The notes: generated by a model from the sequence alone, not told the origin. A stretch of DNA of 64,000 nucleotides from Chthonomonadaceae bacterium (GCA_043762265.1 JAYUMV010000239.1:2142-66141), one strand, 5' to 3'; positions 2,519 to 34,584 are shown, counted from the first letter of the stretch. Made by a program: numbers and translations.

Positions 2519-2558
2519 TAAAAAATTCCCCGGTGGCCATCTCGTGGCGACCGGGGAA
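2519..2558 (-). terminator. Rho-independent terminator of the HAF/PEP-CTERM gene
   Basis: Minus strand: TTCCCCGGT-(15 nt loop)-ACCGGGGAA followed by TTTTTTAT, about 30 nt after the stop codon. Confidence 0.65.
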
Positions 2559-2589
2559 ATCATCTCGCGGACCTGCGCGACTGCGGCCC

Positions 2590-3762
2590 TTATTTTCGGC
2601 GCTTGCGTCGTACCGCGAAACCGATACCGGTCATGCTCATCCCCATCAGCAGGGCGACCGCGCCCGGCTCTGGTGTCGTCGCCACGGTCGCGTCCGGAAC
2701 CAGCAGGAAGGCACGTCTCTTACCAGCCGGATCGACACCGGTGCCGACGATATAGCCGTTGTCGGTAATGCCCGTCGCGTCCGTCAGCTGCCATCCCGTG
2801 CTGCTGGCGTCCAGGTAGTTGTTCAGATCGTACAGCGCGGTGTCGTAGTAGAAAGCCCGATTGGCGGACTGCCCGACCACATCTCCGAAATTGTCGATCG
2901 CGCGCCCCTGAGAGAAGAAGCCATCGAAGGAGCCGATGTTGGTCGCCGTACCGTCGATCAATCCGCCCACCGTGGTGCGAAAAGCGTGGCTGTACCCGGA
3001 CCCGTCGTCCGAATACCCCGTCACCTGGCCGAGATCGTTGATCGCATAGGCCGCGGAGGCGCCGCCCGCTCCCGCGAAGGTACCCAGATCCGAGCCGCTG
3101 TCGATAAGGCCTCCAGAGGTCGTGCGGAAGACATCCTGCTGAGCAGGGCTTCCGGACACAATGGAAAAGCCGACGATCTGATTGTTATTGTTGATGCCCT
3201 GTGCGGAGGAGTAGTCTCCGCTCAGCGCGCCCAGGTCCACCATCCCCCCATTGCTGTACCGGAAGCCGTGCTTCGTGAAGGTTCCATTCTTGTCCGAAGT
3301 ACCGGCGATGATTCCCGCCGCGTTGATTGCGTTGCCCTGAGACTGCAGACCTGTCGTCAGCGTCCCCAGATCGTGCATCGTTCCGTCGTAGAAGAACGCG
3401 TGGCGATAGTTCCCGGTTGCGTTTGCCCAGCCCGTGATCTGACCGAGGTCGTTTATCCCATATCCGATGGCGCCACGGCCGCCCAGAGTTCCGGTGTCAT
3501 GCATTGCGCCGTCGTAAAAGAACGACCGTGGATTCCCATCGTTGGGGATAAAGGAGAAACCCGTTACCTGTCCGCTCGAATTGACAGCCTCTGCTGTCGA
3601 GCCGCCGAAGACTCCCGAGCCACCCAGCGTGCCGAGGCCTATGGCCTGGTAGAGCGGTGGAGTCGCCAGAGCGGCTGGCGCCGCAGCCAGGGAGCCGGAG
3701 AAGAGGGCAAAAGTGAGGAGGAACCTGTGGCCGTGGAGGCTTCGATGGCGGTTGCGTACAAT
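2590..3762 (-). CDS. HAF-repeat extracellular protein with PEP-CTERM sorting signal (start codon unresolved)
   Basis: Repeated ..HAF(F/R)YDG.M.DLGTL..G.INDLGQ(I/V)TG.. units. C-terminus is TPEPGAVALLMGMSMTGIGFAVRRKRRK. The frame stays open upstream of the ATG at 3504 and encodes another repeat plus a signal peptide (RFLLTFALFSGSLAAAPAALA), with no in-frame ATG/GTG/TTG. Confidence 0.75.
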   Translation of the reverse strand: MVRNRHRSLHGHRFLLTFALFSGSLAAAPAALATPPLYQAIGLGTLGGSGVFGGSTAEAVNSSGQVTGFSFIPNDGNPRSFFYDGAMHDTGTLGGRGAIGYGINDLGQITGWANATGNYRHAFFYDGTMHDLGTLTTGLQSQGNAINAAGIIAGTSDKNGTFTKHGFRYSNGGMVDLGALSGDYSSAQGINNNNQIVGFSIVSGSPAQQDVFRTTSGGLIDSGSDLGTFAGAGGASAAYAINDLGQVTGYSDDGSGYSHAFRTTVGGLIDGTATNIGSFDGFFSQGRAIDNFGDVVGQSANRAFYYDTALYDLNNYLDASSTGWQLTDATGITDNGYIVGTGVDPAGKRRAFLLVPDATVATTPEPGAVALLMGMSMTGIGFAVRRKRRK

Positions 3763-3915
3763 GCGTATCGGGCGGCGTATAAGAATCAGACGGCAGCGAC
3801 GAGAATGGACAGTGCGAATATCGCAGATAGGCTCGCGTTGTGGTAAGGGAGAGGCTATTGCTCGTTGGTCTCCCGCAAATACGAAAATGGCGAATGGATA
3901 TAGGAAAAGGCTTCT

Positions 3916-6723
3916 ATGTTGGAAGAACCCTGGCGTGTGACCCTATGCGGCGGCTTATCCGCGCGCCAGGGCGCCCATAGCGTGTCGCGTTTTCGGACGC
4001 AGAAGACGGGACTTTTGCTGGCTTATTTGGCACTACATAGGGAGCGCACGCACGGGCGCGAGGAGTTGGCCGAGCTTTTCTGGCCCGAAAGCGCCGACTC
4101 GCTGCATAGTCTGAGGCTAGGCTTGGCCTCGCTGCGTCAGCAACTGGAGCCGCCGGGAGTGGGCAGGGGGCAGGTGTTGAGAGCGGATCGCAACCATGTC
4201 GGGCTGGTGTCCGGGACCGTGCGTACGGATGTGGCCGACTTTCACGCGGCAGTCGCGGAAGCGGCGCGCACGGTGGAGACGAAGCAGACGACGCAACGGC
4301 TCCGGGACGGCGTGGAGGCCATTTCGGGCGAACTGTTGCCGGGGAGCTATCTGGAGTGGGTGTTGCAGGCGCGTGAGATTCTGTCGGAGCAGTTGCAGAG
4401 CGCGCTCAAGGATCTGGTCGTGTTGCTGATTGCCCAGGAGGAGGCGGAGTCGGCGCTGCCGTTTGCGCTGCGACGGGTGCATCTAAACCCGCTGAACGAG
4501 GAGGCGCATCTGGCGGTGATGCAGTTGCTGCTGCGGTTGGAGCGCCCGGCCGACGTGCCACGGCAGTTCGAGCATCTGCGTGCGCTGTTAAAGGAGATCG
4601 GCATTGCGCCCTCCCTGCAGGCGCAAGAGTTGGCGGATGGCTGCCTCTCGTTTTCGGAGGATCCTGTTGTTTCGGTTCTTAGCTTCGGTGGATTGGGTGC
4701 GCGTCCGGTCGCCTCCCTGGTCGGCCCACTGCCGGCCACTCCCCCGTTCGCCCCTCCGCGTTTCCCTCCCGCGCCCTCCGTTTCAACCCGGCCTGCGGTT
4801 CGTCTGCCTCTGCCTCTTACCTCTTTCTTCGGGCGAGAGACGGAGTTAAGCCAAATACGCGCGTTGCTGGCGCCGCCTTCTGCCGCTAATGCGGATGGCG
4901 AAGAGCTTTTGTCAGGCGCGCAGCTCTGGCGCGCGCGTGTGCTGACCGTGCTTGGAACGGGAGGCTCGGGCAAGACACGACTGGCGATCGAGGTCGCACG
5001 CCTCTGCGCCGCCGACGCCGATAGGACGGTCTGCTTTGTAGAGTTGGTGGATGCGGACACCCCCGAACACATGCTGCAGGCGATTGCGGAGGCGGTCTGC
5101 CCGCATGCACCGGCCGATTGCCTGCCTTTGGAAGGGATTGTGAAGGCCCTTGGAGCAGGAGCGACTCTGTTGATCCTGGATAACATGGAGCAGCTCGTCG
5201 AAGAGGGCACGGAGGTCGTTGGGCGACTGCTGGAGCGGCTGCCGGACCTGACGATCCTGGTGACGAGCCGACTTCGCCTGAGCTTGGCTGGGGAACGCGA
5301 GTTTCCTCTGTTGCCGCTACCCACCCCTGAGCGCGCCGATGCGCCGGAGTGCCTGATGGAGTTTGCGAGCGTGCGGTTATTTGTGGACAGGGCGCAGGCG
5401 GCCCGCGCCGATTTTCAGTTGACCGCGCGGAACGCCGCCGCTGTGGCGGCGTTGTGCCGGCGGCTAGAAGGACTGCCTCTGGCGCTGGAGCTTGCGGCAA
5501 GTTGGGCGCAGACGCTCTCTCCGGCGCAGATGCTGGCGCGTCTGGATCGGCGGTTCGAGATGTTGCGCACGCGGCAGAGAGGCGTGGCCTCGCGGCATCA
5601 GGCGCTCGATGTGTGTATCGACTGGAGTTTTCGCTTATTGGATCCGGAGTTGCAGACTTTTTTCTGCAGGTTATGTCTGCTGCATGGGGAGTGGACCCTG
5701 GAGACGGCGGAGGCCGTCGTCGGGGAGAGAGATATTTTGGAGAAAGTGCAGCGGTTGCGGGATGCCTCTTTGCTGCTGGTGCGCGAGGCGCAAGACGCGG
5801 AGGGAACATCGCTGCGCTTTCACATGCTAGAGTCGTTACGCGAGTTCGGGCTGGAGCGATTGGAGCCGAAGGAGTGGGATACCGGACATGAGCGTCTAAC
5901 GCACTATTTTAGCGCCCTCTCCGGCCCAGACCCTTTTGCGACGGTCGATACCGAAAACGTGCGCGCAGTCGTCTCCTGGTGTCGCACTTCAGCGGTCGGG
6001 TATGCGCTGGAACTGGATCTGCTCAATGCGCTCATGCATTTCTGGGGCAATCGCGGTGGCTGGGTAGAAGGACGGGACTGGTTACAGGCGGCGCTGGAGC
6101 GCCATGCGGGGGAGGCCGTTCTTGCGCAGAGGAAGGCATGGAATACGCTCGGCTTTCTACATGCGATGCTGGGTGACGACGGCCAAGCCCGAGACTGTTT
6201 CGAACGCCTGCTGGCCGATTCGGAACGGGCGGAAGATCCGATGATGGCCGTGCGCGCCCTGAGCAACCTGGCGATTATTGCGATGAGAGCAGAAGACTTT
6301 TCACAGGGATGCGCGCTTATGGAGCAGAGTCTGTCTCAGGCGGAGAGACTCGGGGATGCGCGGATGATTGCCACGCAAAATTACAATTTGGGCGCAGCGT
6401 ACGTGGAACTGGGACACTATGAAGAGGCGCGCCGTTTGCTTGATCGGAGTCTGCTGCAGAGCCGTGAACAGAATTTTGCGGCTGGCGTCGCTCTCTGCCT
6501 CTGCAGCCTTGCTGAGGTGGCGCGAAAAGAGGGAGATAGCCTGGCAGCCCGGCAGATGCTTGAGGATAGTCTGGAGATATTTCGCTCTGTCGGCGAGCAG
6601 CCGCGTATCGCAGAGATGCTCGATCGCCTGGTAAAACTCTTGGAAGCTGAGGGGGATGTGCTCCAGGCACGTCTTTATGCCGAGGAGAGCGCTCTGCTGC
6701 AGACGCAACTGCGGGGTGAATGA
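3916..6723 (+). CDS. SARP/AfsR-like regulator: OmpR-type wHTH + BTAD + NB-ARC ATPase + TPR
   Basis: N-terminus WRVTLCGGLSARQG..VSRFRTQKTGLLLAYLA. BTAD-like helical region. Walker A GTGGSGKTRLAIE. C-terminal TPR units (NLAIIAMRAEDFSQG.., NLGAAYVELGHYEEA..). Confidence 0.9.
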   Translation: MLEEPWRVTLCGGLSARQGAHSVSRFRTQKTGLLLAYLALHRERTHGREELAELFWPESADSLHSLRLGLASLRQQLEPPGVGRGQVLRADRNHVGLVSGTVRTDVADFHAAVAEAARTVETKQTTQRLRDGVEAISGELLPGSYLEWVLQAREILSEQLQSALKDLVVLLIAQEEAESALPFALRRVHLNPLNEEAHLAVMQLLLRLERPADVPRQFEHLRALLKEIGIAPSLQAQELADGCLSFSEDPVVSVLSFGGLGARPVASLVGPLPATPPFAPPRFPPAPSVSTRPAVRLPLPLTSFFGRETELSQIRALLAPPSAANADGEELLSGAQLWRARVLTVLGTGGSGKTRLAIEVARLCAADADRTVCFVELVDADTPEHMLQAIAEAVCPHAPADCLPLEGIVKALGAGATLLILDNMEQLVEEGTEVVGRLLERLPDLTILVTSRLRLSLAGEREFPLLPLPTPERADAPECLMEFASVRLFVDRAQAARADFQLTARNAAAVAALCRRLEGLPLALELAASWAQTLSPAQMLARLDRRFEMLRTRQRGVASRHQALDVCIDWSFRLLDPELQTFFCRLCLLHGEWTLETAEAVVGERDILEKVQRLRDASLLLVREAQDAEGTSLRFHMLESLREFGLERLEPKEWDTGHERLTHYFSALSGPDPFATVDTENVRAVVSWCRTSAVGYALELDLLNALMHFWGNRGGWVEGRDWLQAALERHAGEAVLAQRKAWNTLGFLHAMLGDDGQARDCFERLLADSERAEDPMMAVRALSNLAIIAMRAEDFSQGCALMEQSLSQAERLGDARMIATQNYNLGAAYVELGHYEEARRLLDRSLLQSREQNFAAGVALCLCSLAEVARKEGDSLAARQMLEDSLEIFRSVGEQPRIAEMLDRLVKLLEAEGDVLQARLYAEESALLQTQLRGE

Positions 6724-6849: not shown

Positions 6850-6902
6850 AGACGGTGCAGACGGACGCTTGAGACGCTGTTGAGACGATAGGTCACTATA
6901 AT
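6850..6902 (+). promoter_or_regulatory. Activator-type promoter: TTGAGACG x2 (11-nt register) - 9 nt - TATAAT, with two extra AGACGG copies upstream
   Basis: TTGAGACG at 6869-6876 and 6880-6887; TATAAT at 6897-6902. The hexamer 17 nt upstream (ACGCTG) is not -35-like. AGACGG at 6850 and 6859. Confidence 0.6.
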
Positions 6903-7039: not shown

Positions 7040-7762
7040 ATGTTCACGACACGCTCTTCTTCTCGCCGCGCCCTCTCGGCGTCGGCAAGCCTCCTGCTCC
7101 TCGGCGGCGCCCTGGTCTGCTCTGCACCGCAGGCCCATGCCGATCAGTACCTGGTCGGTGCCCTGCTGTTCGCCGCAGATTTTACAGGTGCGACCACCGC
7201 CTCCACTTCCTATCAGTACGATACGAATACTGGGAACGGGGCAAATACAACCGCGCTCAACTTCACTTTCAATGGGACGACCTTCGGCAAAGGCATCTCT
7301 CTTCTGCTGCCCAGCGGCAACAGTACCTTGTCGTTCGTTGAGAACGTGGTGACTCCAATCTCGCAGTTCAACGGAACCGCAGGAGATCTGGGGCTGTTCT
7401 TCTCCTCGACCAACACGCCGTACAACCCGGCCGCTGGGGCTCGAACGCCCGATCTGCTGGTATCCCGCGCTACGAATGGGTCCACGGCGTTCTTCTTCCC
7501 CACAGCGGGAACCTCGATCAACGACTATGTCTTTCCCGGCAATCGCGCTTACAGCGGAGCGACCAGCGCGACGCCGGGCTCACTTCCGATCACGGTGACA
7601 AGTTATAGTGTCGATAATAATGGGAGCGGCTCCGTGACTTTACGGGTGGGTGCTGCGGGAGCGGCCACGCCGGAGCCCGGCAGTATCGCCCTGCTTGTCG
7701 GAATGGGACTGACCGGCGGCGCCGTCGCACGACGCCGACGCAGAACCACGCTCGGCAGCTAA
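7040..7762 (+). CDS. Secreted PEP-CTERM protein, S/T/N/G-rich, function unknown
   Basis: Signal peptide MFTTRSSSRRALSASASLLLLGGALVCSAPQAHA. C-terminal TPEPGSIALLVGMGLTGGAVARRRRR. Confidence 0.85.
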   Translation: MFTTRSSSRRALSASASLLLLGGALVCSAPQAHADQYLVGALLFAADFTGATTASTSYQYDTNTGNGANTTALNFTFNGTTFGKGISLLLPSGNSTLSFVENVVTPISQFNGTAGDLGLFFSSTNTPYNPAAGARTPDLLVSRATNGSTAFFFPTAGTSINDYVFPGNRAYSGATSATPGSLPITVTSYSVDNNGSGSVTLRVGAAGAATPEPGSIALLVGMGLTGGAVARRRRRTTLGS

Positions 7763-12442: not shown

Positions 12443-12952
12443 TTACGAGGGATAGACCCCGATGAGGGCTATGATGAAGTTTATCGCTAAATAAGGCCCG
12501 ATATTGGAATGGGCATTGCTGACAGGTGGTGCAGAGATTGCCACAGGCGCCATGGAGACCGTCTGAGGCGCATTCTTATAGGCCGCGCCTGCGTTCGGCG
12601 CTGCCAGGAAATGACCGACAGGCGAACTGGAAGTCGCCGTTCCGGACTTGGCCTGCAGGTCATGGCTATGGACGGGCAGTTGCGCCTCCGTCAGGACCAC
12701 GTTTTCCACTCCCGCCGTGTCGCCCAGATTGTAGGTCGAGAGGCCAGGACCCTGTCCTGCATGGACGGGGACTCGTCCACGCAGATCCGGAAGATTAAAA
12801 GTCGTCGCATCGCCTCCGTAGGTGGTGCCGATTATCGCAAACAAGACCTGGTAGTCGGCTTGACTTAATGCGCTGCCGTCGCATATCGCCCAGCCGCGGG
12901 GCGCGAAGTTGCCCGTAAATATTCGAATCTCACTGATATAGGGTGTTGCCAT
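12443..12952 (-). CDS. Phage-tail-collar-domain protein (MdpB-like), copy 3
   Basis: N-terminus PYISEIRIFTGNFAPRGWAICDGS.LSQADYQVLFAIIGTTYGGD..TFNLPDLRGRVPVH. C-terminus HSNIGPYLAINFIIALIGVYPS. SD AAGGAGG. Confidence 0.85.
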   Translation of the reverse strand: MATPYISEIRIFTGNFAPRGWAICDGSALSQADYQVLFAIIGTTYGGDATTFNLPDLRGRVPVHAGQGPGLSTYNLGDTAGVENVVLTEAQLPVHSHDLQAKSGTATSSSPVGHFLAAPNAGAAYKNAPQTVSMAPVAISAPPVSNAHSNIGPYLAINFIIALIGVYPS

Positions 12953-12963
12953 TTGCGTCCTCC

Positions 12964-13464
12964 TTAATTGCGTGGTGGGAAGATGCCCAATAGGGCGATG
13001 ATAAAGTTAAGGGTCAGGAAGGGTTGACGATTTTCGTGTCCTTGACCCGCCCCGGCGCTCGATACGCTCCCGGACTCCATCAGCGTATCGGCCGTGGAGT
13101 CGTAGAGGGTGCGGCGCGGCGGAGCTGCAAGCAAAGATCCTGCCGGTGACACGGTGTTCGCTGCTGCCGAGGAAGCCATGATCGTATGGCTATGCGTGGG
13201 CATTGTGCTCTCCGTCAGAACGACCGACTCCGCGCCCCCCTGCGTCCCGTAAGGCATGTTAGTGTCGAAATGCATCGGCACGCGGCTGCGCAGATCCGGA
13301 AGCGCGAACGTCTGTCTTCCGTCGCCGCCATAGGTGGTCCCAAGCAGGGAAAACAGAGCCGTATTCTGGCTTATCGAGAGTAACTGACCGTTGCACAGTG
13401 CCCAGTTTTGTGGAATAGTGTTGCCGGAGATCATTTTGATCTCTCCCAAGAATGGTTCTGCCAT
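12964..13464 (-). CDS. Phage-tail-collar-domain protein (MdpB-like), copy 2
   Basis: PFLGEIKMISGNTIPQNWALCNGQLLSISQNTALFSLLGTTYGGDGRQTFALPDLRSRVPMH ... HENRQPFLTLNFIIALLGIFPPR. 11-nt gap to the next gene. Confidence 0.9.
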   Translation of the reverse strand: MAEPFLGEIKMISGNTIPQNWALCNGQLLSISQNTALFSLLGTTYGGDGRQTFALPDLRSRVPMHFDTNMPYGTQGGAESVVLTESTMPTHSHTIMASSAAANTVSPAGSLLAAPPRRTLYDSTADTLMESGSVSSAGAGQGHENRQPFLTLNFIIALLGIFPPRN

Positions 13465-13476
13465 GGTAATCTCCTT

Positions 13477-13998
13477 TTACTGGTGACTCGGGTAGATGCC
13501 GGACGTGCAGATGATGAAATTGAGCGCAAGAAAAGGCGATCTGTTTTCGTGCGCCTGATTGCTCCCTCGTGAAACGAGGCTGTTTGCATTCATCGCGACG
13601 AGATTGGTTGGCGAGTGGTAGATATTGCCCAGGCTGCTATTCGCTTGACTCAAAGCCATCGTCGTCGGATTCGCCTGGTTCGCGGCATTGGGAGCCGCCA
13701 TCAGTGTGTGCGTGTGTGCGGCCTGGTCCGCTGTCAGAGCGACTCCTGCCTGCCCGTCTGCTTCGCCCAGAGTGTACGCAGTCAGTCCTGTGCCAGCTCC
13801 GCATTGGAGGGGAACTCGCTCGCGCAAATCCGGTAGGGCGAAAGTGTTAATACCGTTTCCGCCGTAGGCGGTGCCCAGAATGCTGTACAGGCTGGCGTAG
13901 GTAGTCGTACTGAGAAGCTGACCGTTGCAGAAGGTCCAGCCTCTAGGCTCAAAGTTAAAGGGTACGAGTCTGATTTCGCCGATAAATGCTTCTGACAT
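13477..13998 (-). CDS. Phage-tail-collar-domain protein (MdpB-like), copy 1
   Basis: AFIGEIRLVPFNFEPRGWTFCNGQLLSTTTYASLYSILGTAYGGNGINTFALPDLRERVPLQ ... HENRSPFLALNFIICTSGIYPS. 12-nt gap to the next gene. Confidence 0.9.
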   Translation of the reverse strand: MSEAFIGEIRLVPFNFEPRGWTFCNGQLLSTTTYASLYSILGTAYGGNGINTFALPDLRERVPLQCGAGTGLTAYTLGEADGQAGVALTADQAAHTHTLMAAPNAANQANPTTMALSQANSSLGNIYHSPTNLVAMNANSLVSRGSNQAHENRSPFLALNFIICTSGIYPSHQ

Positions 13999-17887: not shown

Positions 17888-20800
17888 ATGCAGAGGCACA
17901 ACCCCGTGGCTTGTGAGGGCTCTCAGGTTAGAACAGCAGGATTTGAGGGTGGCAGAGTCGCAATGAGAGGAGCGAATCATTATCCCCACGGAGCCGCGAA
18001 CACATTGGACACAGGGCAACAGACAGAAGTCATATGGCGGATCGAACTCCTGGGAGGCGTGTCTCTTTCACGTGGGGGGGAACAACGTCCTCCCTTTAAA
18101 ACGCGCCGTATGACACGCCTGTTGGCGCGTCTCGCCTGTTTTCCGGACAGGGCGCATGCCCGTGACATCCTGGCAGAAGAGTTGTGGCCGGAAGAGGACC
18201 CGGAAGCGATTCGGGAGCGGTTTCGGCAGACCCTGGCGCTATTGCGGCGCGAGTTGGAGCCTGCGGACGTTTCGGCCGGAAGCGTTCTGATTGCGGACCG
18301 CTCCACGGTGCGTTTAGCTCCTCGATCCTTCACCACCGATATTGCGGATTTTACCGCAGCGCTCCGCATGGCCGCCACCGAGACCGATCTTGTTCGGCAG
18401 ATCGCGCCATTGCGGCAAGCGGTCACGCTCTATCGCGGCGATCTAATGCCGGGGTTCGATGAAGACTGGATACAGACCGAGCGCCTGCATCTGGCGGAAC
18501 GCTCCCGGCAGGCGCTGGTCCGCCTGACCATGCTGCTCGCCTCGGGAGGGCAATGGGAAGAGGCCATCGAAACGGCGCGTCGGACCATCACCGCCGATCC
18601 CCTGCATGAGGAGGCGCACTGCATGCTGATCCGCCTCTTCGCGCAGTCGGGGCGTATGGCGGATGCGCACCGGCAGTACGAAGCGTTGGAACGGCTCCTG
18701 AAGGAGCAGATGAACCTGGAACCCGCTGCGGCAACGCAGGATCTCATGCGGGAGTTGCGCAGCGGACTCACGTTGGCCTCTTTGCTTTCGGTCTCCCCGC
18801 AACCTCCAGTCGTCGTAGCCCCGCTGGAACCGACTCTTCCAGCACAGACTGTCGCTCCTCCCACAGCCGTCCTGCCACATCCGATGACACGTTTCTACGG
18901 TCGTGAGGCGGAAATAGAACAACTGACAGCGCTGCTCTCACCTCAAGGTGTCCCCTCCAACGCGCCGCCGCCGCTCGTCACTTTGACTGGGCAGGGGGGA
19001 GCCGGGAAGACGCGTCTCGCGCTGGAGGTCGCCCGGCGACTGGCCCCGTCCTACGCGCAGGCGGTCTGGTTTGTGCCGCTTGCCGATGTCCTCTCCCCCG
19101 AACGTATAGGGGATGCGGTCTGTGAGACGCTGGAACTAGCGCGTTCCGGACAGTCCGATCCGATCCAACAGGCCATCGCGTTTCTGCGTGGATATCCGAA
19201 CGCGCTTTTGATCTTCGACAATTTCGAACATCTCCAGGAGGAGGGAACGCCGGTGCTGCAGGCGCTGCGTCACCGGCTGCCGCACCTCGCCTGTCTGGTC
19301 ACCTCGCGCCATAAACTCAATCTGGACGGGGAGCGCGATCTGACTCTCTCTCCACTCGCCACTCCGGAGGGGGAGCAGAGCAGCGAACAGTTGCAGAGTT
19401 ATCCGAGTGTGCAGCTTTTCCTGGACCGTGCGCAGGCCGCACGCTACTCTTTCGCCCTGACGCCAGCGAATGCAGATGCCATTGCGACGCTGGTGCAGCA
19501 GCTCGAAGGGCTTCCACTGGCGATCGAACTGGCGGCAGCCTGGGCCGCGACACTCACGCCGGAACAGATCCTGCTGCGTCTGTCGCATCGCTTTGAACTT
19601 CTCGTCAGTCGGCGTAGAGACGCTCCGCAGCGGCATCGCAGTCTGCAAGCGGTGCTGGAAGGCAGCGTTCAACTGTTGCCCCCCTGGCTGCAGAAGCTCT
19701 ATGCGCAACTCTCTGTCTTTCGCGGGGGATGGACTCTGGAAGCGGTAGAACAGGTGGCGCGGGTGCCCACGACGACCAGCGTCGGAACTCTGCACTATAT
19801 GGAAGGGCTGGCGCTGCTTCAGGAGCGCTCCTTCGTGCACTCGGAGGAGGCGGACGCGGAGATGCGCTACTCGCTTCTGGAATCCTTGCGAAAGTTCGGC
19901 GCGGAGCAGTTGACCGCAGAAGAGCAACGGAGTCTGGCGCAGCGGCATGCCGCTTTCTATCTTGTGCTGGCAACGGAGGCCCAGGCACATCTGCGCACAC
20001 CGGCAGAAAAACAGTGGTTCGACCGCCTGGAGCTAGAGAACGAGAACTTGCGTGCGGCTCTGGGGTGGGCGCTCGCAAACGAGCCGGATACCGCCTTGCA
20101 GATGACGGCGCGTCTTCCTCACTTCTGGATGACGCGTGGTTTTGCGCGGGAGGGCAGCGATTGGCTGCATCGGGCGCTGCGGTGTCCCGCAGAAGTCTCG
20201 ACGGTACGCGCGGAAGCGCTCAATGGGTTGGCGCTGATGAAGTTCTCCCTGAGCGAGTACGATGCCGGTAAGGCGTGGGCGCTGGAGAGCCTGAAGGCGC
20301 GGCGAGAGTTGGAGGATCCGCAGGGAACCGCGAAGACCCTCAACACCCTGGGAGCGATTTTGATGGAACAGGGCGACTATCGTGAAGCGCAGACCTGCTA
20401 TGAGGAGTGCCTCGGTCTGCACCGCCTGACCGGCCATCGCATGGGCGAATCGATCGTGCTGGCCAACCTGGGCAATCTGGTCTATGGCCAGGGAGAGTAC
20501 GCCATGGCCTGCAACTACTACGAGGCGTGCCTGGAAGCACGACGCGCGCTGGGCGATCGGCGTGGGATCGCGGCGGCCCTCGACTACATGGCGCGGGCCG
20601 TGCGAGAGCAAGGCGACTACGGGAGGGCCTGCGATCTGCATGCCGAGAGTCTGGACATGCGGCGCGAACTCAACGACAAACAGAGCGTGGCCCTTTCGTT
20701 GAATCATATGGCCTTCGCGAAAATCCTGATGGGAGAAAAGGTTGTGGCCCGCACTCTGCTGGAAGAGAGCCTGGTCTACTCTCGGGAGATCGGGGATAAA

Positions 20801-21178
20801 GCAGGAGTCGCGGAAGCGTTCTCTCTTTTAGGAGAACTGGCACGTCAGGACAATGCCGGAACGAGTCCCCGGGGGTACTGGTCGGAGAGCCTGACGATCT
20901 GGCAGGAGATGGGAGATAGAGCCAGCACGGTCGCCCTCCTGGAATCCTTTGCAGGACTGGTGCATTCCGAAGGCCAAAGCGATGCGGCAGCGCAACTGCT
21001 CGGCTTTGCCGAGGCCCTGCGCACCGAAATCTTCTCTCCCCTGCGACCCTCCAGCCTCCCTCGCTACGCACAGACCCTGGATGCTGTCCGTGCCGCCCTG
21101 GGGTCCGAAGCGTTCGAGGCTGCTTGGACCGTAGGGCGCTCTCTTACCCTTGAACAGGCGATTCGCCTGGTTCTCTAA
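17888..21178 (+). CDS. SARP/AfsR-like regulator: wHTH + BTAD + NB-ARC + long TPR array
   Basis: VIWRIELLGGVSLSRGG..FKTRRMTRLLARLA. Walker A GQGGAGKTRLALE. About 8 TPR units at the C-terminus. The true start is probably downstream (ATG 17963 or TTG 18005), because the paralogues start about 5 aa before the WR(I/V) motif. Confidence 0.9.
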   Translation: MQRHNPVACEGSQVRTAGFEGGRVAMRGANHYPHGAANTLDTGQQTEVIWRIELLGGVSLSRGGEQRPPFKTRRMTRLLARLACFPDRAHARDILAEELWPEEDPEAIRERFRQTLALLRRELEPADVSAGSVLIADRSTVRLAPRSFTTDIADFTAALRMAATETDLVRQIAPLRQAVTLYRGDLMPGFDEDWIQTERLHLAERSRQALVRLTMLLASGGQWEEAIETARRTITADPLHEEAHCMLIRLFAQSGRMADAHRQYEALERLLKEQMNLEPAAATQDLMRELRSGLTLASLLSVSPQPPVVVAPLEPTLPAQTVAPPTAVLPHPMTRFYGREAEIEQLTALLSPQGVPSNAPPPLVTLTGQGGAGKTRLALEVARRLAPSYAQAVWFVPLADVLSPERIGDAVCETLELARSGQSDPIQQAIAFLRGYPNALLIFDNFEHLQEEGTPVLQALRHRLPHLACLVTSRHKLNLDGERDLTLSPLATPEGEQSSEQLQSYPSVQLFLDRAQAARYSFALTPANADAIATLVQQLEGLPLAIELAAAWAATLTPEQILLRLSHRFELLVSRRRDAPQRHRSLQAVLEGSVQLLPPWLQKLYAQLSVFRGGWTLEAVEQVARVPTTTSVGTLHYMEGLALLQERSFVHSEEADAEMRYSLLESLRKFGAEQLTAEEQRSLAQRHAAFYLVLATEAQAHLRTPAEKQWFDRLELENENLRAALGWALANEPDTALQMTARLPHFWMTRGFAREGSDWLHRALRCPAEVSTVRAEALNGLALMKFSLSEYDAGKAWALESLKARRELEDPQGTAKTLNTLGAILMEQGDYREAQTCYEECLGLHRLTGHRMGESIVLANLGNLVYGQGEYAMACNYYEACLEARRALGDRRGIAAALDYMARAVREQGDYGRACDLHAESLDMRRELNDKQSVALSLNHMAFAKILMGEKVVARTLLEESLVYSREIGDKAGVAEAFSLLGELARQDNAGTSPRGYWSESLTIWQEMGDRASTVALLESFAGLVHSEGQSDAAAQLLGFAEALRTEIFSPLRPSSLPRYAQTLDAVRAALGSEAFEAAWTVGRSLTLEQAIRLVL

Positions 21179-21221: not shown

Positions 21222-21287
21222 ATATCACGGTAAACTCCGCATATATCACGCCTTTGTCATGAAGATGTTACGTTGGAAGTGTATCCT
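21222..21287 (+). promoter_or_regulatory. Activator-type promoter: ATATCACG / ATATCACG / ATGTTACG (21–22-nt spacing) - 9 nt - TATCCT
   Basis: Repeats at 21222, 21243 and 21265; TATCCT at 21282-21287. Lies inside the ORF-track start extension (21259), which supports the ATG at 21337 as the real start. Confidence 0.5.
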
Positions 21288-30525: not shown

Positions 30526-30744
30526 ACGAGAGACGGCGCTGGGCGGTCAGAAGACGCGAACGATGATGACAGACACTTTGACCTGGACCTCCCCCTTCGG
30601 ATGGATCGTCAACCTGGCAGACATCCTGTTTTTGAAAGCCCACATGCGGCGATTTCTGAACGAGCGTGATTCCAACCTGAAACAGATCGCAGAATCAGCG
30701 AATGGGTGAGGTGTCGTGACTTGCAAGAGTGGGAAAGCCAGACA

Positions 30745-30778
30745 TAGAAAAGCCGCTCGGTCCATTGAACTGAGCGGC
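30745..30778 (-). terminator. Rho-independent terminator of the lipoprotein gene
   Basis: Minus strand: GCCGCTC-(13 nt)-GAGCGGC followed by TTTTCT. Confidence 0.55.
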
Positions 30779-30821
30779 CGATGAGCGGCCTTTTGCTGCC
30801 GCTGCTGCGAGAGTGACAAGA

Positions 30822-31367
30822 TCAGGTAGTCCCCTTGGTCAGCGTGATCGTGCCGGAATTGGTGGTGCCGTCGGTGTTGTGAACGATAACGTTCAGCGTC
30901 ACGCTCTGGGAGGTGGATGGTCCTCCGTAGTTGATGCTGCTGACGGTGGGAGAGATGTTGGTGATGAGGCCGGTAAACAGGCCCGATTTGGCGATGGTGA
31001 GATTGGCCACAGTCGCCGTGCCGGAGGGGCCGGTAACGGTGATCGCATCGTTGTTGTAAGAGCCTGTCAGGGCTGTCTGGGAGCCCGCGAAGCCGAACTG
31101 ATTGCCGCTGAGGGCGATGGTTATGGTCGCCGCCTTCGTCGTGGGGTTCAGGGTGATGTTCATCGTAGAGGTGCCGCTGGTGCCGTCGACGTCGTGCCAT
31201 TGGCCGCTCCAGGTACCGGCGTAGGCCGTGGCAAAGCTGGTGGTGTTCACGGTCCCGTTGCCACTGCCTCCACAGCCTGTAAGCAAGGATGCTGCGACGA
31301 CGGCCAGGCAGGCGAACAGAGTAAATGCCATGCGTTGGGACGATCCTGGAAAATTGAGGTGTTTCAT
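30822..31367 (-). CDS. Small S/T/N/G-rich lipoprotein, function unknown
   Basis: Lipobox SLLTGCGGSG. SD AAGGAG. Confidence 0.8.
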   Translation of the reverse strand: MKHLNFPGSSQRMAFTLFACLAVVAASLLTGCGGSGNGTVNTTSFATAYAGTWSGQWHDVDGTSGTSTMNITLNPTTKAATITIALSGNQFGFAGSQTALTGSYNNDAITVTGPSGTATVANLTIAKSGLFTGLITNISPTVSSINYGGPSTSQSVTLNVIVHNTDGTTNSGTITLTKGTT

Positions 31368-31433
31368 AGTCTGGTGTCTCCTTAACGAGGGCGTAAGCGG
31401 TGCCTACGGCCCGGTTTAGTATTGGCTCCATCA

Positions 31434-31467
31434 GACTCTACAGCACGCCCATTACAACATCATTACA
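31434..31467 (-). promoter_or_regulatory. Activator-type promoter: TTGTAATG x2 (11-nt register) - 9 nt - TAGAGT
   Basis: Minus strand: TTGTAATG-atg-TTGTAATG-ggcgtgctg-TAGAGT. Lies 37 nt after the regulator stop and about 60 nt before the lipoprotein ATG. Confidence 0.6.
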
Positions 31468-31503
31468 AAGGAAACCCCGACTATCTCGGCTGCTCTTTCA
31501 AAC

Positions 31504-34500
31504 TCACGCAGATTCATTTTTCGACTGCAATGCCAACGAGATCGCGGCTTCGAGAGGCAGGCTTCTTCCTCTCTTCAGGCCGTCGAGGAAGCGAGGATCG
31601 GTGGCTACAGGGAGAAATGCGTCGTCAAATAGTTCCGCCTCTAGGGAGGACTTCTCTGACTGCATCTTGTGTCGGAGAGCCTGGGCAGCGCCCATCAGGA
31701 CGCCAGCACGTTCAGGAATTTCGGTCAGGACGGCATGGAGGGCGAAGCCCTCAAGGGCATGGGCCTGACCGAAACGACTGCCCACCGCCCTGTGGAGCTG
31801 CAGACTCTCCGTGAAGCAGCGAGAAGAGGCAGTATAGTCTTGTAGAGACAGATAGTTCTCCCCGAGGTTTACCAGACTTATGCCGGTAGCGTACCGATCC
31901 TCCAGTTCCCGCGCGATCATAAGCGCCTCCTCATGTACCTTTATGGCCTCCGCATACTCCTCCCGATAGTGCGCTAACGCGCCCAGATTGTTCAGAGTAG
32001 ACCAGATAGCCCCACGGTCACCGATCTGTTTGCGTAGATTGAGCGCTTCCTGGAGATTGACCTGGGACGCCTCGAAATCTCCCATAGATGTCTGGAGAGA
32101 GCCTATGTTATTCAGGCCCGTGGCGATGCGCCAGGTTATTCCCAGTTCCCGGAGGATGGCCAATCCCGCTTCATAGTAACGCAGGGCCTCCTTCAACTTG
32201 CCCTGTTCGCTGTAGTAAGTGCCTATATTGCTCAGCGTCAGGCCGATCCCTTCCAAGTTTCCTGCCTGCCGAAAATAGAGCAGCGCCTGCTCCTGGTGCG
32301 CCAGGGCCTGTGGATAGGCGCTTTCAGATTTCGCCAGTCCCGCAGCCGTCACGTAAGCACGGGCCAATACCTGCGGATCGAGGCCCGGTGCTGCGCGCTC
32401 TAGAAGCTGTTTTGTGAACTGTCGGTCTTCCCGGGTGCTGCCGCGCATATCCCAAAATCTCCAGAGCGATCCCACGATTCGCAGGCCGATTTCAGTCGGA
32501 GAGGGAGAGAGATCGGCGGTCGGCGCCTCGATACACCAGGTTAGCGCTGCCGTCAGGTTGGCGTGATCCTCCTCCAGTCGCTTCAGCAGGTCGCCCAGTT
32601 CAGGGCCGTTCAGACGAGGTGCGATCTCTTCCACCAGTTTCATCAGGCATAAAGCATGTGTATACTGTATCCGCTCCTGTTCCCAAGGCGGCAACTGCTC
32701 CCAGGCAAACTCCCGCAGCGTCTCCAGCATGCGAAAGCGCATCGCTCCGCTACGCTCTTCGGCGATCAAGAGCGATTCCGAGACCAGCCTCTCCAGCAGA
32801 TCGAACGCACTCCATCGGGCCGGTTCCAGCAGTACACTTCTCGACCCGTCTTCTTCGTCCCTCGGCAGGCACACCTCTGCCGCTTCCTTGGCATCCCAAC
32901 CGCCCTGAAAGACTGCCAACCGCGCAAAGAAACGCCGTGTTTCCGGGGAAAGCATCTGTACGCTCCAGGCGATGGCGGTGCGGAGTGAGCGATGGCGGGC
33001 GTCTTTATCGGCGCGTGGATTGACAAGCAGTTCGAGGCGCGGCACCAGGCGGTCGCTCATCTGCGCCGGGGTCATGGTGCGGATGCGCGCTGCTGCCAGT
33101 TCAATAGCCAGGGGAATGCCTTCTAAATACCGGCACAAGGTTGCGATGGCTTCGGCATTACGAGGGGTGAGTTGAAAGTCGGGGCGTACCGCCTGTGCCC
33201 TATCGAGAAATAGGCGAACGGAAGCGAACGTCGTCAGGGCTTCGGGAGTCGTCTCTCTCGTCGGCGTCGCCAGGGGAGCCAACGGAAACTCTTGCTCCCC
33301 CGCGATCCCGAGTACACGGCGAGAAGTCACTGCGAGCGTCAGAGACGGGACCGCTGCGAGCAGCGTCTGCACCAGCGAAGCTCCCTGCTCGACAAGATGT
33401 TCGAAATTGTCCAGAATGAGCAGAGAGGGAGCCGCCGAGAGCGCCGCGATCACCTGATTCAGGGGCGCGATGCCTCCCTGCGCAGGCAGGCGCAGGGTCT
33501 GCCGAAGGGCATCCGGCAACTGGCCGATATCCAGCAGGTTGCCCAGATAGACGAAGCGAACGCCGCCTGCAAACTGCGCCTGCAGTAAGGCCGCCGTCTC
33601 GATGATCAGGCGAGTCTTGCCATTGCCGCCCGGCCCGGTAAGCGTTATGAGACGATTTGTCTGCAAAAGGGCTGCAACGCGTGCTTGCTCCCGCTCTCTG
33701 CCGAAAAAACGCGTGAGACGCACGGGCAGTTCGACAGGGAGCGAAGGTATGGGAACGGTAGGCACGACCGGAGTAGGCGGCGCAAGCGTGGGAGCGTCGG
33801 CGGTAACGCCAACCCGCAATGCGGCTCCATGCCCCAATCGGTCACGTACCTGCTGAATAAAATTTCTTGCTGCCGCCGTCGGTTTGGCGTCGAACTGCTC
33901 CCGCAGGGTCTGTTCCAGGGTCGCGTACTGGCGAAGCGCAGCAGAGGGTTGTCCGACCGCAACGAAAAGACGGATGAGATCGAAGTGCGCCTCTTCGTTC
34001 CAGGCATCGGCCTGAAGCGCACGCTGGGCATAGGCGATCGCTTGATCGAAATCCCGCTCATGGGCCAGCCTCCGAATCAGTCTCCGCAGGGCCTCCTGAT
34101 GCAAGGAAGCAAGCCGCTCGCGCTCCGCAGCGATCCAATCGGCATCATAGCCCGGCAGCAGGTCGCCACGATAGAGGTCGACAGCCTGCGCCAGGAGTCG
34201 GATCTGTTCGGGTCGCTCTGACGCCCTGCCCGCCTGCGCCAACCCCTGTTCGAACTCTGCGGTATCGATCAGGAACGCTTCCGGATGCAGGCGCACCAGG
34301 AACCGGTCCGCTTCAATCAGCGGTGGCGCTGCTTGACCAGGCGCTTGAAACTGCCGTCGCAGAGCCGCCAACTCTACCCGTAGTCGGTTGCGCGCGGCCT
34401 CCGGGTCCTCGTCGGGCCAGAGCCGCAGCAGCAACTCTTCACGCGGCAACGTGCAATGGGGATGGAGCGCCAGGGCTGCCAGCATCTCGCCACCCTTGCG

Positions 34501-34584
34501 GGTACGAAAGCGATCTACCATCTGCTCGCCCTGTCGGGCGATAAAACCACCCAGTAGTTGAATTCTCCAGCGCTCCGTGAGCAT
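31504..34584 (-). CDS. SARP/AfsR-like regulator: wHTH + BTAD + NB-ARC + TPR
   Basis: MLTERWRIQLLGGFIARQGEQMVDRFRTRKGGEMLAALA. Walker A GPGGNGKTRLIIE. C-terminal TPR array. Confidence 0.9.
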   Translation of the reverse strand: MLTERWRIQLLGGFIARQGEQMVDRFRTRKGGEMLAALALHPHCTLPREELLLRLWPDEDPEAARNRLRVELAALRRQFQAPGQAAPPLIEADRFLVRLHPEAFLIDTAEFEQGLAQAGRASERPEQIRLLAQAVDLYRGDLLPGYDADWIAAERERLASLHQEALRRLIRRLAHERDFDQAIAYAQRALQADAWNEEAHFDLIRLFVAVGQPSAALRQYATLEQTLREQFDAKPTAAARNFIQQVRDRLGHGAALRVGVTADAPTLAPPTPVVPTVPIPSLPVELPVRLTRFFGREREQARVAALLQTNRLITLTGPGGNGKTRLIIETAALLQAQFAGGVRFVYLGNLLDIGQLPDALRQTLRLPAQGGIAPLNQVIAALSAAPSLLILDNFEHLVEQGASLVQTLLAAVPSLTLAVTSRRVLGIAGEQEFPLAPLATPTRETTPEALTTFASVRLFLDRAQAVRPDFQLTPRNAEAIATLCRYLEGIPLAIELAAARIRTMTPAQMSDRLVPRLELLVNPRADKDARHRSLRTAIAWSVQMLSPETRRFFARLAVFQGGWDAKEAAEVCLPRDEEDGSRSVLLEPARWSAFDLLERLVSESLLIAEERSGAMRFRMLETLREFAWEQLPPWEQERIQYTHALCLMKLVEEIAPRLNGPELGDLLKRLEEDHANLTAALTWCIEAPTADLSPSPTEIGLRIVGSLWRFWDMRGSTREDRQFTKQLLERAAPGLDPQVLARAYVTAAGLAKSESAYPQALAHQEQALLYFRQAGNLEGIGLTLSNIGTYYSEQGKLKEALRYYEAGLAILRELGITWRIATGLNNIGSLQTSMGDFEASQVNLQEALNLRKQIGDRGAIWSTLNNLGALAHYREEYAEAIKVHEEALMIARELEDRYATGISLVNLGENYLSLQDYTASSRCFTESLQLHRAVGSRFGQAHALEGFALHAVLTEIPERAGVLMGAAQALRHKMQSEKSSLEAELFDDAFLPVATDPRFLDGLKRGRSLPLEAAISLALQSKNESA

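Follow-up and report, generated by a model that had tools for sequence, protein, structure and literature searches.

In the 64-kb stretch of DNA analysed here (the window), a pair of short direct repeats lies between the gene for a large regulator, regulator 3 (R3), and a lipoprotein gene on the same strand. This arrangement raises the question of whether the element is an operator of the SARP type, which protein would bind it, and how binding would affect the lipoprotein gene. The question also has a taxonomic side, since the literature usually presents SARPs as activators of antibiotic clusters that occur mainly or exclusively in Actinobacteria (PMC10936776, PMC11301090), whereas the closest genomes to the window are Chthonomonadales/Armatimonadota.

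The element and its predicted promoter setting

On the minus strand, the R3 site consists of an upstream repeat, DRup, with the 8-mer TTGTAATG (31468-31461), the trinucleotide atg (31460-31458), a downstream repeat, DRdown, with the same 8-mer (31457-31450), the 9-nt spacer ggcgtgctg (31449-31441) and a predicted -10 hexamer, TAGAGT (31440-31435). The element thus measures 34 bp, spans 31435-31468 and follows an exact 8+3+8+9+TAnnnT layout. The initial annotation had placed it at 31434-31467; the site is real, but its span was offset by one base and it lies on the minus strand. The R3 gene (31504-34584, minus strand) has its stop ending at 31504, and the first repeat therefore begins 35 nt past the stop, not 37 nt as had been proposed. 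The ATG of the lipoprotein gene, at 31367, lies 67 nt beyond the -10, a distance previously given as about 60 nt. If TAGAGT is set at -12 to -7, the box occupies -40 to -19, with eight conserved and three variable bases per unit, DRup at a predicted -40 to -33 and DRdown at a predicted -29 to -22. From this layout we infer a transcription start for the lipoprotein promoter near 31428. No canonical sigma-70 -35 is found at 16-18 nt from TAGAGT, and a sigma-70 consensus scan called no promoter here or at the related site of regulator 1 (R1), from which we take the -35 to be absent at both. The TAGAGT of the window is also weaker than the TATAGT of its orthologues.

The R1 site is the closest parallel within the window. 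It reads, on the plus strand, TTGAGACG (6869-6876), ctg, TTGAGACG (6880-6887), ataggtcac and TATAAT (6897-6902), and the whole element (6869-6902) follows the gene for regulator 1 and precedes a gene (7040-7762) for a PEP-CTERM secreted protein of 240 aa, whose weak PEP-CTERM match falls just under the Pfam cut-off. The boxes of the two sites differ at 3/8 positions, so that the earlier observation of an identical 8+3+8+9+TAnnnT geometry with a different repeat holds on both counts (TTGAGACG versus TTGTAATG). The window holds just three exact repeats with a period of 11 and a length of 8 nt or more, two of which are the R3 and R1 sites. The 8-mer TTGTAATG has no exact copies in the 64 kb other than the two at the R3 site, and no second pair is present. 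We defined the full architecture as two 8-mers with a period of 11 and at most one mismatch, followed by 8-10 nt and then TAnnnT; the 128 kb of two-strand window sequence holds it at three places, namely the R3 and R1 sites, both perfect, and a weak match at 2349-2381 on the plus strand (AATTCCTG-atg-AATGCCTG-8 nt-TATGTT). This weak match is intergenic and SARP-adjacent, upstream of an ORF (2533-3846) that precedes regulator 1. We did not count it as a third site because it is at background level, with about 1.6 matches expected per window from the non-adjacent rate.

The target gene (30822-31367, minus strand) encodes a lipoprotein of 181 aa with the lipobox LLTGC, preceded by a predicted 5' leader (31368-31434) with a ribosome-binding site, AAGGAG, at 31383-31378. 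An overlapping longer ORF (30547-31431) was rejected as the gene, being in another frame, without a ribosome-binding site and without a family match. The lipoprotein family comprises only 16 clusters, all from Chthonomonadales-like sources, and no Pfam family or domain was found for it. An AlphaFold2 model is an all-beta barrel with a mean pLDDT of 77 and values above 90 across most of the mature part, and its weak matches are to calycin-type folds (nitrobindin, Rv2717c, FABP-like; TM 0.44-0.52), a hint from the model that the protein may bind a small ligand. Since the next genes, for a GNAT protein and an aldo-keto reductase, are convergent, the lipoprotein gene is apparently monocistronic in the window. 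In three relatives, a same-strand gene for a large secreted protein (452-827 aa) that is absent from the window follows the lipoprotein gene (L082, 5433-7916; L164, 5067-6431; L169, 658-2016), so that the gene would be regulated on its own here and as part of an operon in some relatives.

The lipoprotein mRNA leader, of about 65 nt, is conserved in five related loci (L081, L082, L084, L167, L169). A hairpin is possible just upstream of the ribosome-binding site (GGGCCGTAGGC...GCTTACGCCC), with a few compensatory changes between loci (GGGCCGTAGGC/GCTTACGCCC versus GGGTGAATGTA/TACATTTCCCC). RNAalifold detected no net covariation signal in it, and a search of 31250-31560 against Rfam gave no match. 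Although a few compensatory changes are present, the covariation signal is missing, and we do not claim the hairpin as a feature.

The regulator and its known relatives

R3 has 1026 aa and the domain order OmpR-type winged helix-turn-helix (wHTH), BTAD, STAND ATPase and C-terminal TPRs. The Trans_reg_C family of Pfam matches residues 28-91 at 27.2 bits (cut-off 26.2), and BTAD matches residues 106-247, directly after the DNA-binding domain (DBD), with an E-value of 2.7e-17. The ATPase region matches nSTAND1 and AAA_16, the latter with a score under the Pfam cut-off, and has an intact Walker A motif (GPGGNGKT, residue 317) and an intact Walker B-like motif (LLILDN, 388); the TPR region matches TPR_12 (E 3e-24). 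When the R3 N-terminus was compared with the PDB as a single sequence (phmmer), only designed TPR proteins came up; EmbR and AfsR became detectable only with a family profile. A SARP-domain profile of 25 N-terminal domains, covering R3 residues 1-265, matches EmbR (2FEZ, 3e-21) and AfsR (8HVR, 1e-20; also 8K60 and 8JKE) along its whole length. Of the solved structures, EmbR 2FEZ matches the N-terminal wHTH and BTAD best in sequence (E 3e-21, residues 2-260 versus 7-268), and the DBD profile matches EmbR, ToxR, AfsR and PhoB-type domains. From the domain composition and these profile matches, we classify R3 as an AfsR-like large SARP and as the presumed binder of the box. R3 lacks the two attributes that have historically gone with the SARP name, an actinobacterial host and control of secondary metabolism, which are taxonomic and historical rather than structural. 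The genes next to R3 encode the lipoprotein, the GNAT protein, the aldo-keto reductase and a VWA protein, and no biosynthetic cluster is evident around the site.

Two paralogues in the window, R1 (3916-6723) and regulator 2 (R2, 17888-21178), share the architecture of R3 at 33-37% identity to it; both also match NB-ARC just under the cut-off of 23.5 bits (22.8 and 20.7 bits). About 45 nt past the R2 stop, ATATCACG occurs twice (21222-21250, plus strand) with a 21-nt period (13-nt gap), which is near the 22-bp spacing also reported for SARP sites; no TAnnnT follows the second copy at 8-10 nt. Translation of the gene after R2 probably does not begin at its annotated ATG (21259), and a signal-peptide-like start lies at about 21337. 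A lookalike of a fourth member of the regulator family lies at 263-2305 on the minus strand, with a STAND NTPase ORF (956-2305) and a separate TPR ORF (263-763). With no SARP DNA-binding module and a frameshift that possibly splits it, it may be a decaying paralogue or a partner without a DBD. Elsewhere in the window, three paralogous genes stand in tandem at 12443-13998 (minus strand), each encoding about 170 aa, with similar N-termini (M..PF/YIGEIR...N..P.GW..C.G). We take this N-terminal pattern to resemble that of phage-tail-collar or microcystin-dependent (MdpB-like) proteins.

Among characterized systems, AfsR of Streptomyces coelicolor, bound to the afs box of the afsS promoter (cryo-EM structures 8HVR, 8JKE, 8K60), has the same domain order as R3. 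The afs box is 22 bp long, with two 11-bp repeats running from -40 to -19 and centred at -29.5 (PMC10936776, PMC11301090). Each AfsR SARP protomer contacts the first 8 conserved bp of a repeat and leaves the last 3 uncontacted, and the side-by-side dimer occupies the place of sigma region 4 at the -35, a mode called sigma adaptation (PMC10936776, PMC11301090). The R3 box has the same 8+3 layout and, relative to the predicted -10, a downstream repeat 8-9 bp away and a poor or absent -35, which would imply a side-by-side dimer and sigma adaptation here as well. Its direct repeats have an 11-bp period, and its 8-mers are fixed while the 3-nt linker is free (atg, gta or ata among orthologues), the linker being the counterpart of the three positions left uncontacted by AfsR in each 11-bp afs repeat (PMC10936776). 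In SARP target promoters, direct repeats lie 11 or 22 bp apart and the 3' repeat is 8 bp from the -10 (PMC10936776); the 9 nt between the 8-mer and TAGAGT are counted in another repeat frame and agree with this to within 1 bp, given the predicted start. The differences from AfsR are also clear. The R3 host belongs to the Armatimonadota (Chthonomonadales-like) and not to the Actinobacteria, similarity to AfsR is detectable by profile only, and the box sequence (TTGTAATG) is unrelated to the afs box. Moreover, AfsR targets a regulator of secondary metabolism, whereas the target of R3 would be a single lipoprotein gene directly downstream, and, unlike AfsR, R3 has several paralogues within one 64-kb stretch, each with its own box.

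Other relatives share parts of this design. Small pathway-specific SARPs such as ActII-ORF4, DnrI and RedD bind heptamer direct repeats spaced 11 or 22 bp apart, the 3' repeat overlapping the -35 and lying about 8 bp before the -10 (PMC10936776), a layout close to the one predicted here, but they have no STAND or TPR regions and lie inside antibiotic clusters. EmbR of Mycobacterium tuberculosis carries a C-terminal FHA domain instead of the STAND and TPR regions of R3, and is under Ser/Thr kinase signalling control. The Pho boxes of PhoB/PhoP and other sites of OmpR-family response regulators resemble the R3 box, as we interpret it, in their head-to-tail winged-helix binding, in 11-bp repeats that replace the -35 and in targets that are often secreted. 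They differ in that no receiver-domain regulator is implicated here, and in that the boxes described here are unshared within the genome and co-vary with the adjacent SARP-STAND genes. A literature search for SARPs outside Actinobacteria returned nothing usable.

Conservation and genomic distribution of the architecture

We collected R3 orthologues with 70-73% regulator identity from a metagenome scan. The site reads TTGTAATG-gta-TTGTAATG-ggcgtactg-TATAGT in L081 and CTGTAATG-ata-TTGTAATG-ggcgtactg-TATAGT in L082 (= L083), the latter with a changed DRup, while L084 (= L166) has the box of the window with TATAGT. In all three loci the box, spacer and -10 are kept, and the stretch from the regulator stop to the first repeat is unalignable between loci. 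The leader is also conserved in these closest orthologues, which means that part of the conservation there reflects low divergence. A further match of 73% (L085) was left out, as its contig is rearranged or chimeric and lacks the intergenic region.

More distant loci were reached through the lipoprotein family. In L164 (lipoprotein 71%, regulator 72% identical) the box, with DRup unchanged, and the -10 are kept although the leader has diverged; L169 keeps box, spacer and -10, also with an unchanged DRup; and L167 reads TTGTAATG-ata-GTGTAATG-gaagtgttg-TATAGT. At lipoprotein loci of 57-66% identity, the sequence of the two 11-bp repeats is different but their register relative to the -10 is exactly kept: L162 has GTCTAATGgta, CGTTAATGgta, cgtctg and TAAAAT; L161 has CGCTAAGTgta, CGCTAAGActa, cgcctg and TACAAT; and L170 has CGCTAAGGatg, GGCTAAGGatg, ggccgg and TATAAT. 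In L163 the lipoprotein gene lies in a different operon and no box was found. The R3-type repeat is kept in at least seven independent orthologous loci with diverged flanks. Two of these neighbourhoods have further features of their own: at L161 (5246-6838), the lipoprotein gene keeps its box, the adjacent regulator is lost and a serine recombinase gene stands beside it, and at L164/L165 (1-1206), the R3 orthologue is directly preceded by a Cas12f1/TnpB-like gene. Such neighbours suggest that mobile elements may reshuffle regulator-target cassettes.

No orthologues of R1 or R2 were present among the 160 loci retrieved with R3, and orthologues of the R1 site were reached through its target protein, whose family comprises 27 clusters. 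The 8+3+8+9+TAnnnT layout recurs in 5/5 R1-target loci (the window and four others) with a drifting box sequence: TTGAGACG in the window, TTGTCACG in L171, TTGTGAGA and TGGTGAGA in L172, TGTTAACG and TGTAAACG in L173, and TTGTGACG and TTGTGACA in L174. Across the lipoprotein and R1-target families together, the 11-bp period and the 9-nt distance to the -10 are constant in 15/15 promoters. Half-sites agree at 7.1-7.4 of 8 positions within a promoter and at 5.0-5.6 of 8 between loci, an excess which indicates that the two repeats change in concert.

The architecture is also concentrated beside genes of this regulator family. It occurs in 9/33 non-redundant 300-nt regions downstream of DBD-containing homologues, against 0.115 +/- 0.35 in dinucleotide-type shuffles, and the nine represent six independent box families (the R3 group, R1, L090 with TTGACTCG, L097 with TTTTAGAG, L006 with TCTGTAA and L117 with TTAGGAG). 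Because a first control on all non-adjacent DNA could be inflated by coding sequence, the comparison was repeated on intergenic DNA only. In about 140 related loci, SARP-STAND-adjacent intergenic DNA holds 25 matches in 73.6 kb and other intergenic DNA of the same loci holds 7 in 169.7 kb, an 8-fold enrichment (Poisson P ~4e-15). The sites have two layouts, being either on the same strand just downstream of the regulator or divergent just upstream of it. The divergent promoters, 8+3+8+(8-10)+TAnnnT, lie at most 350 nt upstream of the regulator start on the opposite strand (L013, L014, L031, L047, L078, L098, L133, L137, L158), on Armatimonadota, Chloroflexota-like and Abditibacterium-like contigs, with a density of 0.56 per kb versus 0.013 per kb elsewhere. 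In all inspected cases, the genes after the boxes encode N-terminal signal peptides.

Taken with the assignment of R3 to the large SARPs, the afs-box geometry and the missing -35, this conservation and enrichment support the initial annotation in reading the element as a SARP-style operator. They likewise bear out its view that the arrangement does not arise by chance, the architecture being perfect at only two sites in the window, kept in orthologues and enriched beside SARP-STAND genes.

Possible cognate pairing, proposed mechanism and alternatives

The initial annotation further proposed that each paralogue recognizes its own operator. The predicted recognition helix of R3 (residues ~64-79), GRNRLRVELAAL, is identical in 5/5 independent R3 orthologues (L081, L082, L084, L164, L004), and the TTGTAATG box is present in 4/4 of those with downstream sequence, the L004 contig ending inside the regulator gene. 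The corresponding helices of R1 (SLHSLRLGLASL) and R2 (IRERFRQTLALL) both differ from that of R3. Elsewhere, the helices GRLNLRVALASL (L013, L014, L031) and GRLSLRVALASL (L015) go with a TTTAACG box in all four loci; L117 and L098, with similar helices (GRN[RN]LSTALSSL), have boxes with a common TAGGA core; and a 2-residue deletion is common to R1 and L174, whose boxes are both of the TTGnGACG type. This correlation of helix with box, together with the concerted change of half-sites, supports cognate regulator-box pairs with paralogue-specific recognition, as far as sequence comparison can indicate. Several observations speak against its strict form. At L167/L168, a box almost identical to that of R3, TTGTAATG-ata-GTGTAATG, precedes a 67%-identical lipoprotein, and the SARP-STAND regulator upstream shares just 36% identity with R3 and has a different helix, GRVSLRTALASL, a combination that would contradict strict paralogue specificity. 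In addition, the box is kept without an adjacent regulator gene at L161, L172 and L173, so adjacency is not obligatory, and a TTGT.A-like core common to the boxes of different paralogues makes cross-binding possible. A helix-to-box code based on a single residue was rejected, as three different helices (those of R3, L006 and L167) occur with TGTAA-core boxes.

With a probability of roughly 0.7, we propose that the lipoprotein gene has an activator-dependent promoter whose core is the 34-bp element, bound by the adjacent R3 and acting through sigma adaptation; binding by R3 itself, and activation rather than repression, are the parts of this proposal that we infer from the comparisons above. 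According to this model, two SARP domains (each an OmpR-type winged helix with BTAD), most likely from R3, would sit side by side on one face of the helix, as the 11-bp period would allow, and each would contact a single 8-bp TTGTAATG repeat. The centre of the 22-bp box would lie near -29.5, in the region that a -35 hexamer and spacer ordinarily take up. Since a -10 is present and no usable -35 is, the bound dimer would stand in for -35 recognition, and it could offer a protein docking surface to sigma region 4 and the RNA polymerase core, as described for AfsR. The STAND ATPase and TPR regions of R3 may gate this activity in response to ATP and a further signal.

The geometry alone does not name the binder, because OmpR/PhoB-type regulators use the same repeat geometry: PhoB, PhoP and GlnR bind 11-bp-period direct repeats that replace the -35, a likeness noted in work on AfsR (PMC11301090). 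The box could accordingly belong to another tandem-binding winged-helix protein, such as an OmpR/PhoB-family response regulator or a SARP paralogue encoded elsewhere, with the adjacency of R3 being incidental or a loose link. The box of L167 beneath a different regulator and the boxes of L161, L172 and L173 without an adjacent one speak for such a binder. So does the L082 box (CTGTAATGATATTGTAATG), which is alike at 13 of 18 positions to what we take to be the Pho box of E. coli (CTGTCATAWAWCTGTCAY). Nonetheless, a global regulator should keep one consensus, and the boxes differ within the same genome (TTGAGACG versus TTGTAATG) and drift between related species with both half-sites changing together. 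One consensus at several promoters, stable between species, as in Pho boxes, is not what the 64 kb of genome covered here contain, where the TTGTAATG pair has no second copy. The 8-fold enrichment is specific to intergenic regions flanking SARP-STAND genes, and in several independent genomes the box tracks the recognition helix of the adjacent regulator. We consequently regard a binder other than R3 as unlikely.

Two further explanations concern what the repeats do. R3 or a paralogue could act as a repressor or roadblock, with protein on the box at -40 to -19 keeping RNA polymerase from a promoter that would otherwise be constitutive or depend on read-through. A position between the -35 and -10 is typical of repressors (PMC11301090), and no terminator-like structure is found between the R3 stop and the box, so that read-through is possible. 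What makes repression improbable in our assessment is that there is no -35 for activator-independent initiation, that the characterized SARPs with such geometry are all activators (PMC10936776, PMC11301090), and that the 9-nt distance kept in 15/15 promoters is needed for face-of-helix contacts with RNA polymerase and not for occlusion. The repeats might also have no regulatory role and be a chance duplication or what is left of a small tandem duplication, given that about 1.4 exact 8-mer repeats of period 11 are expected per 64 kb (an order-of-magnitude estimate) and three are found. Chance would have to account for a repeat kept in at least seven orthologous loci whose flanks have diverged, for a register that persists while the sequence changes, and for the excess over shuffles (9/33 versus 0.1) and over other intergenic DNA (P ~4e-15), and we consider it exceedingly improbable.

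The activator-dependent promoter thus remains our preferred reading, and the data support an afs-box-type promoter with an AfsR-like regulator in Armatimonadota. The regulatory design is known from Streptomyces; what appears to be new is the phylum, the wiring of one regulator to one neighbouring envelope gene and an apparently rapid co-evolution of box and helix. The R3 locus offers a testable triplet of regulator, operator and target in a barely cultured phylum. That the geometry of the AfsR promoter appears to be kept to within one base pair in Armatimonadota points to a conserved mode of RNA polymerase contact. The boxes collected here (TTGTAATG, TTGAGACG, TTGACTCG, TTTAACG, TAGGA-type and TTTTAGAG) and their helices are a first basis for deciphering the recognition code of SARP winged helices and for designing orthogonal expression parts, and they suggest that individual envelope or secreted proteins of these bacteria are under the control of STAND-type signal-sensing activators. 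It is tempting to go further and propose, with slightly less than even confidence, that Armatimonadota, and also Chloroflexota and Abditibacteriota with their divergent sites, may harbour a large radiation of AfsR-like STAND regulators with private, fast co-evolving afs-type boxes and secreted or lipid-anchored neighbours as targets. If this is true, helices and boxes would amount to a naturally occurring set of orthogonal activator-promoter pairs, and sigma adaptation, instead of being special to Actinobacteria, would be an ancient mechanism common to several phyla.
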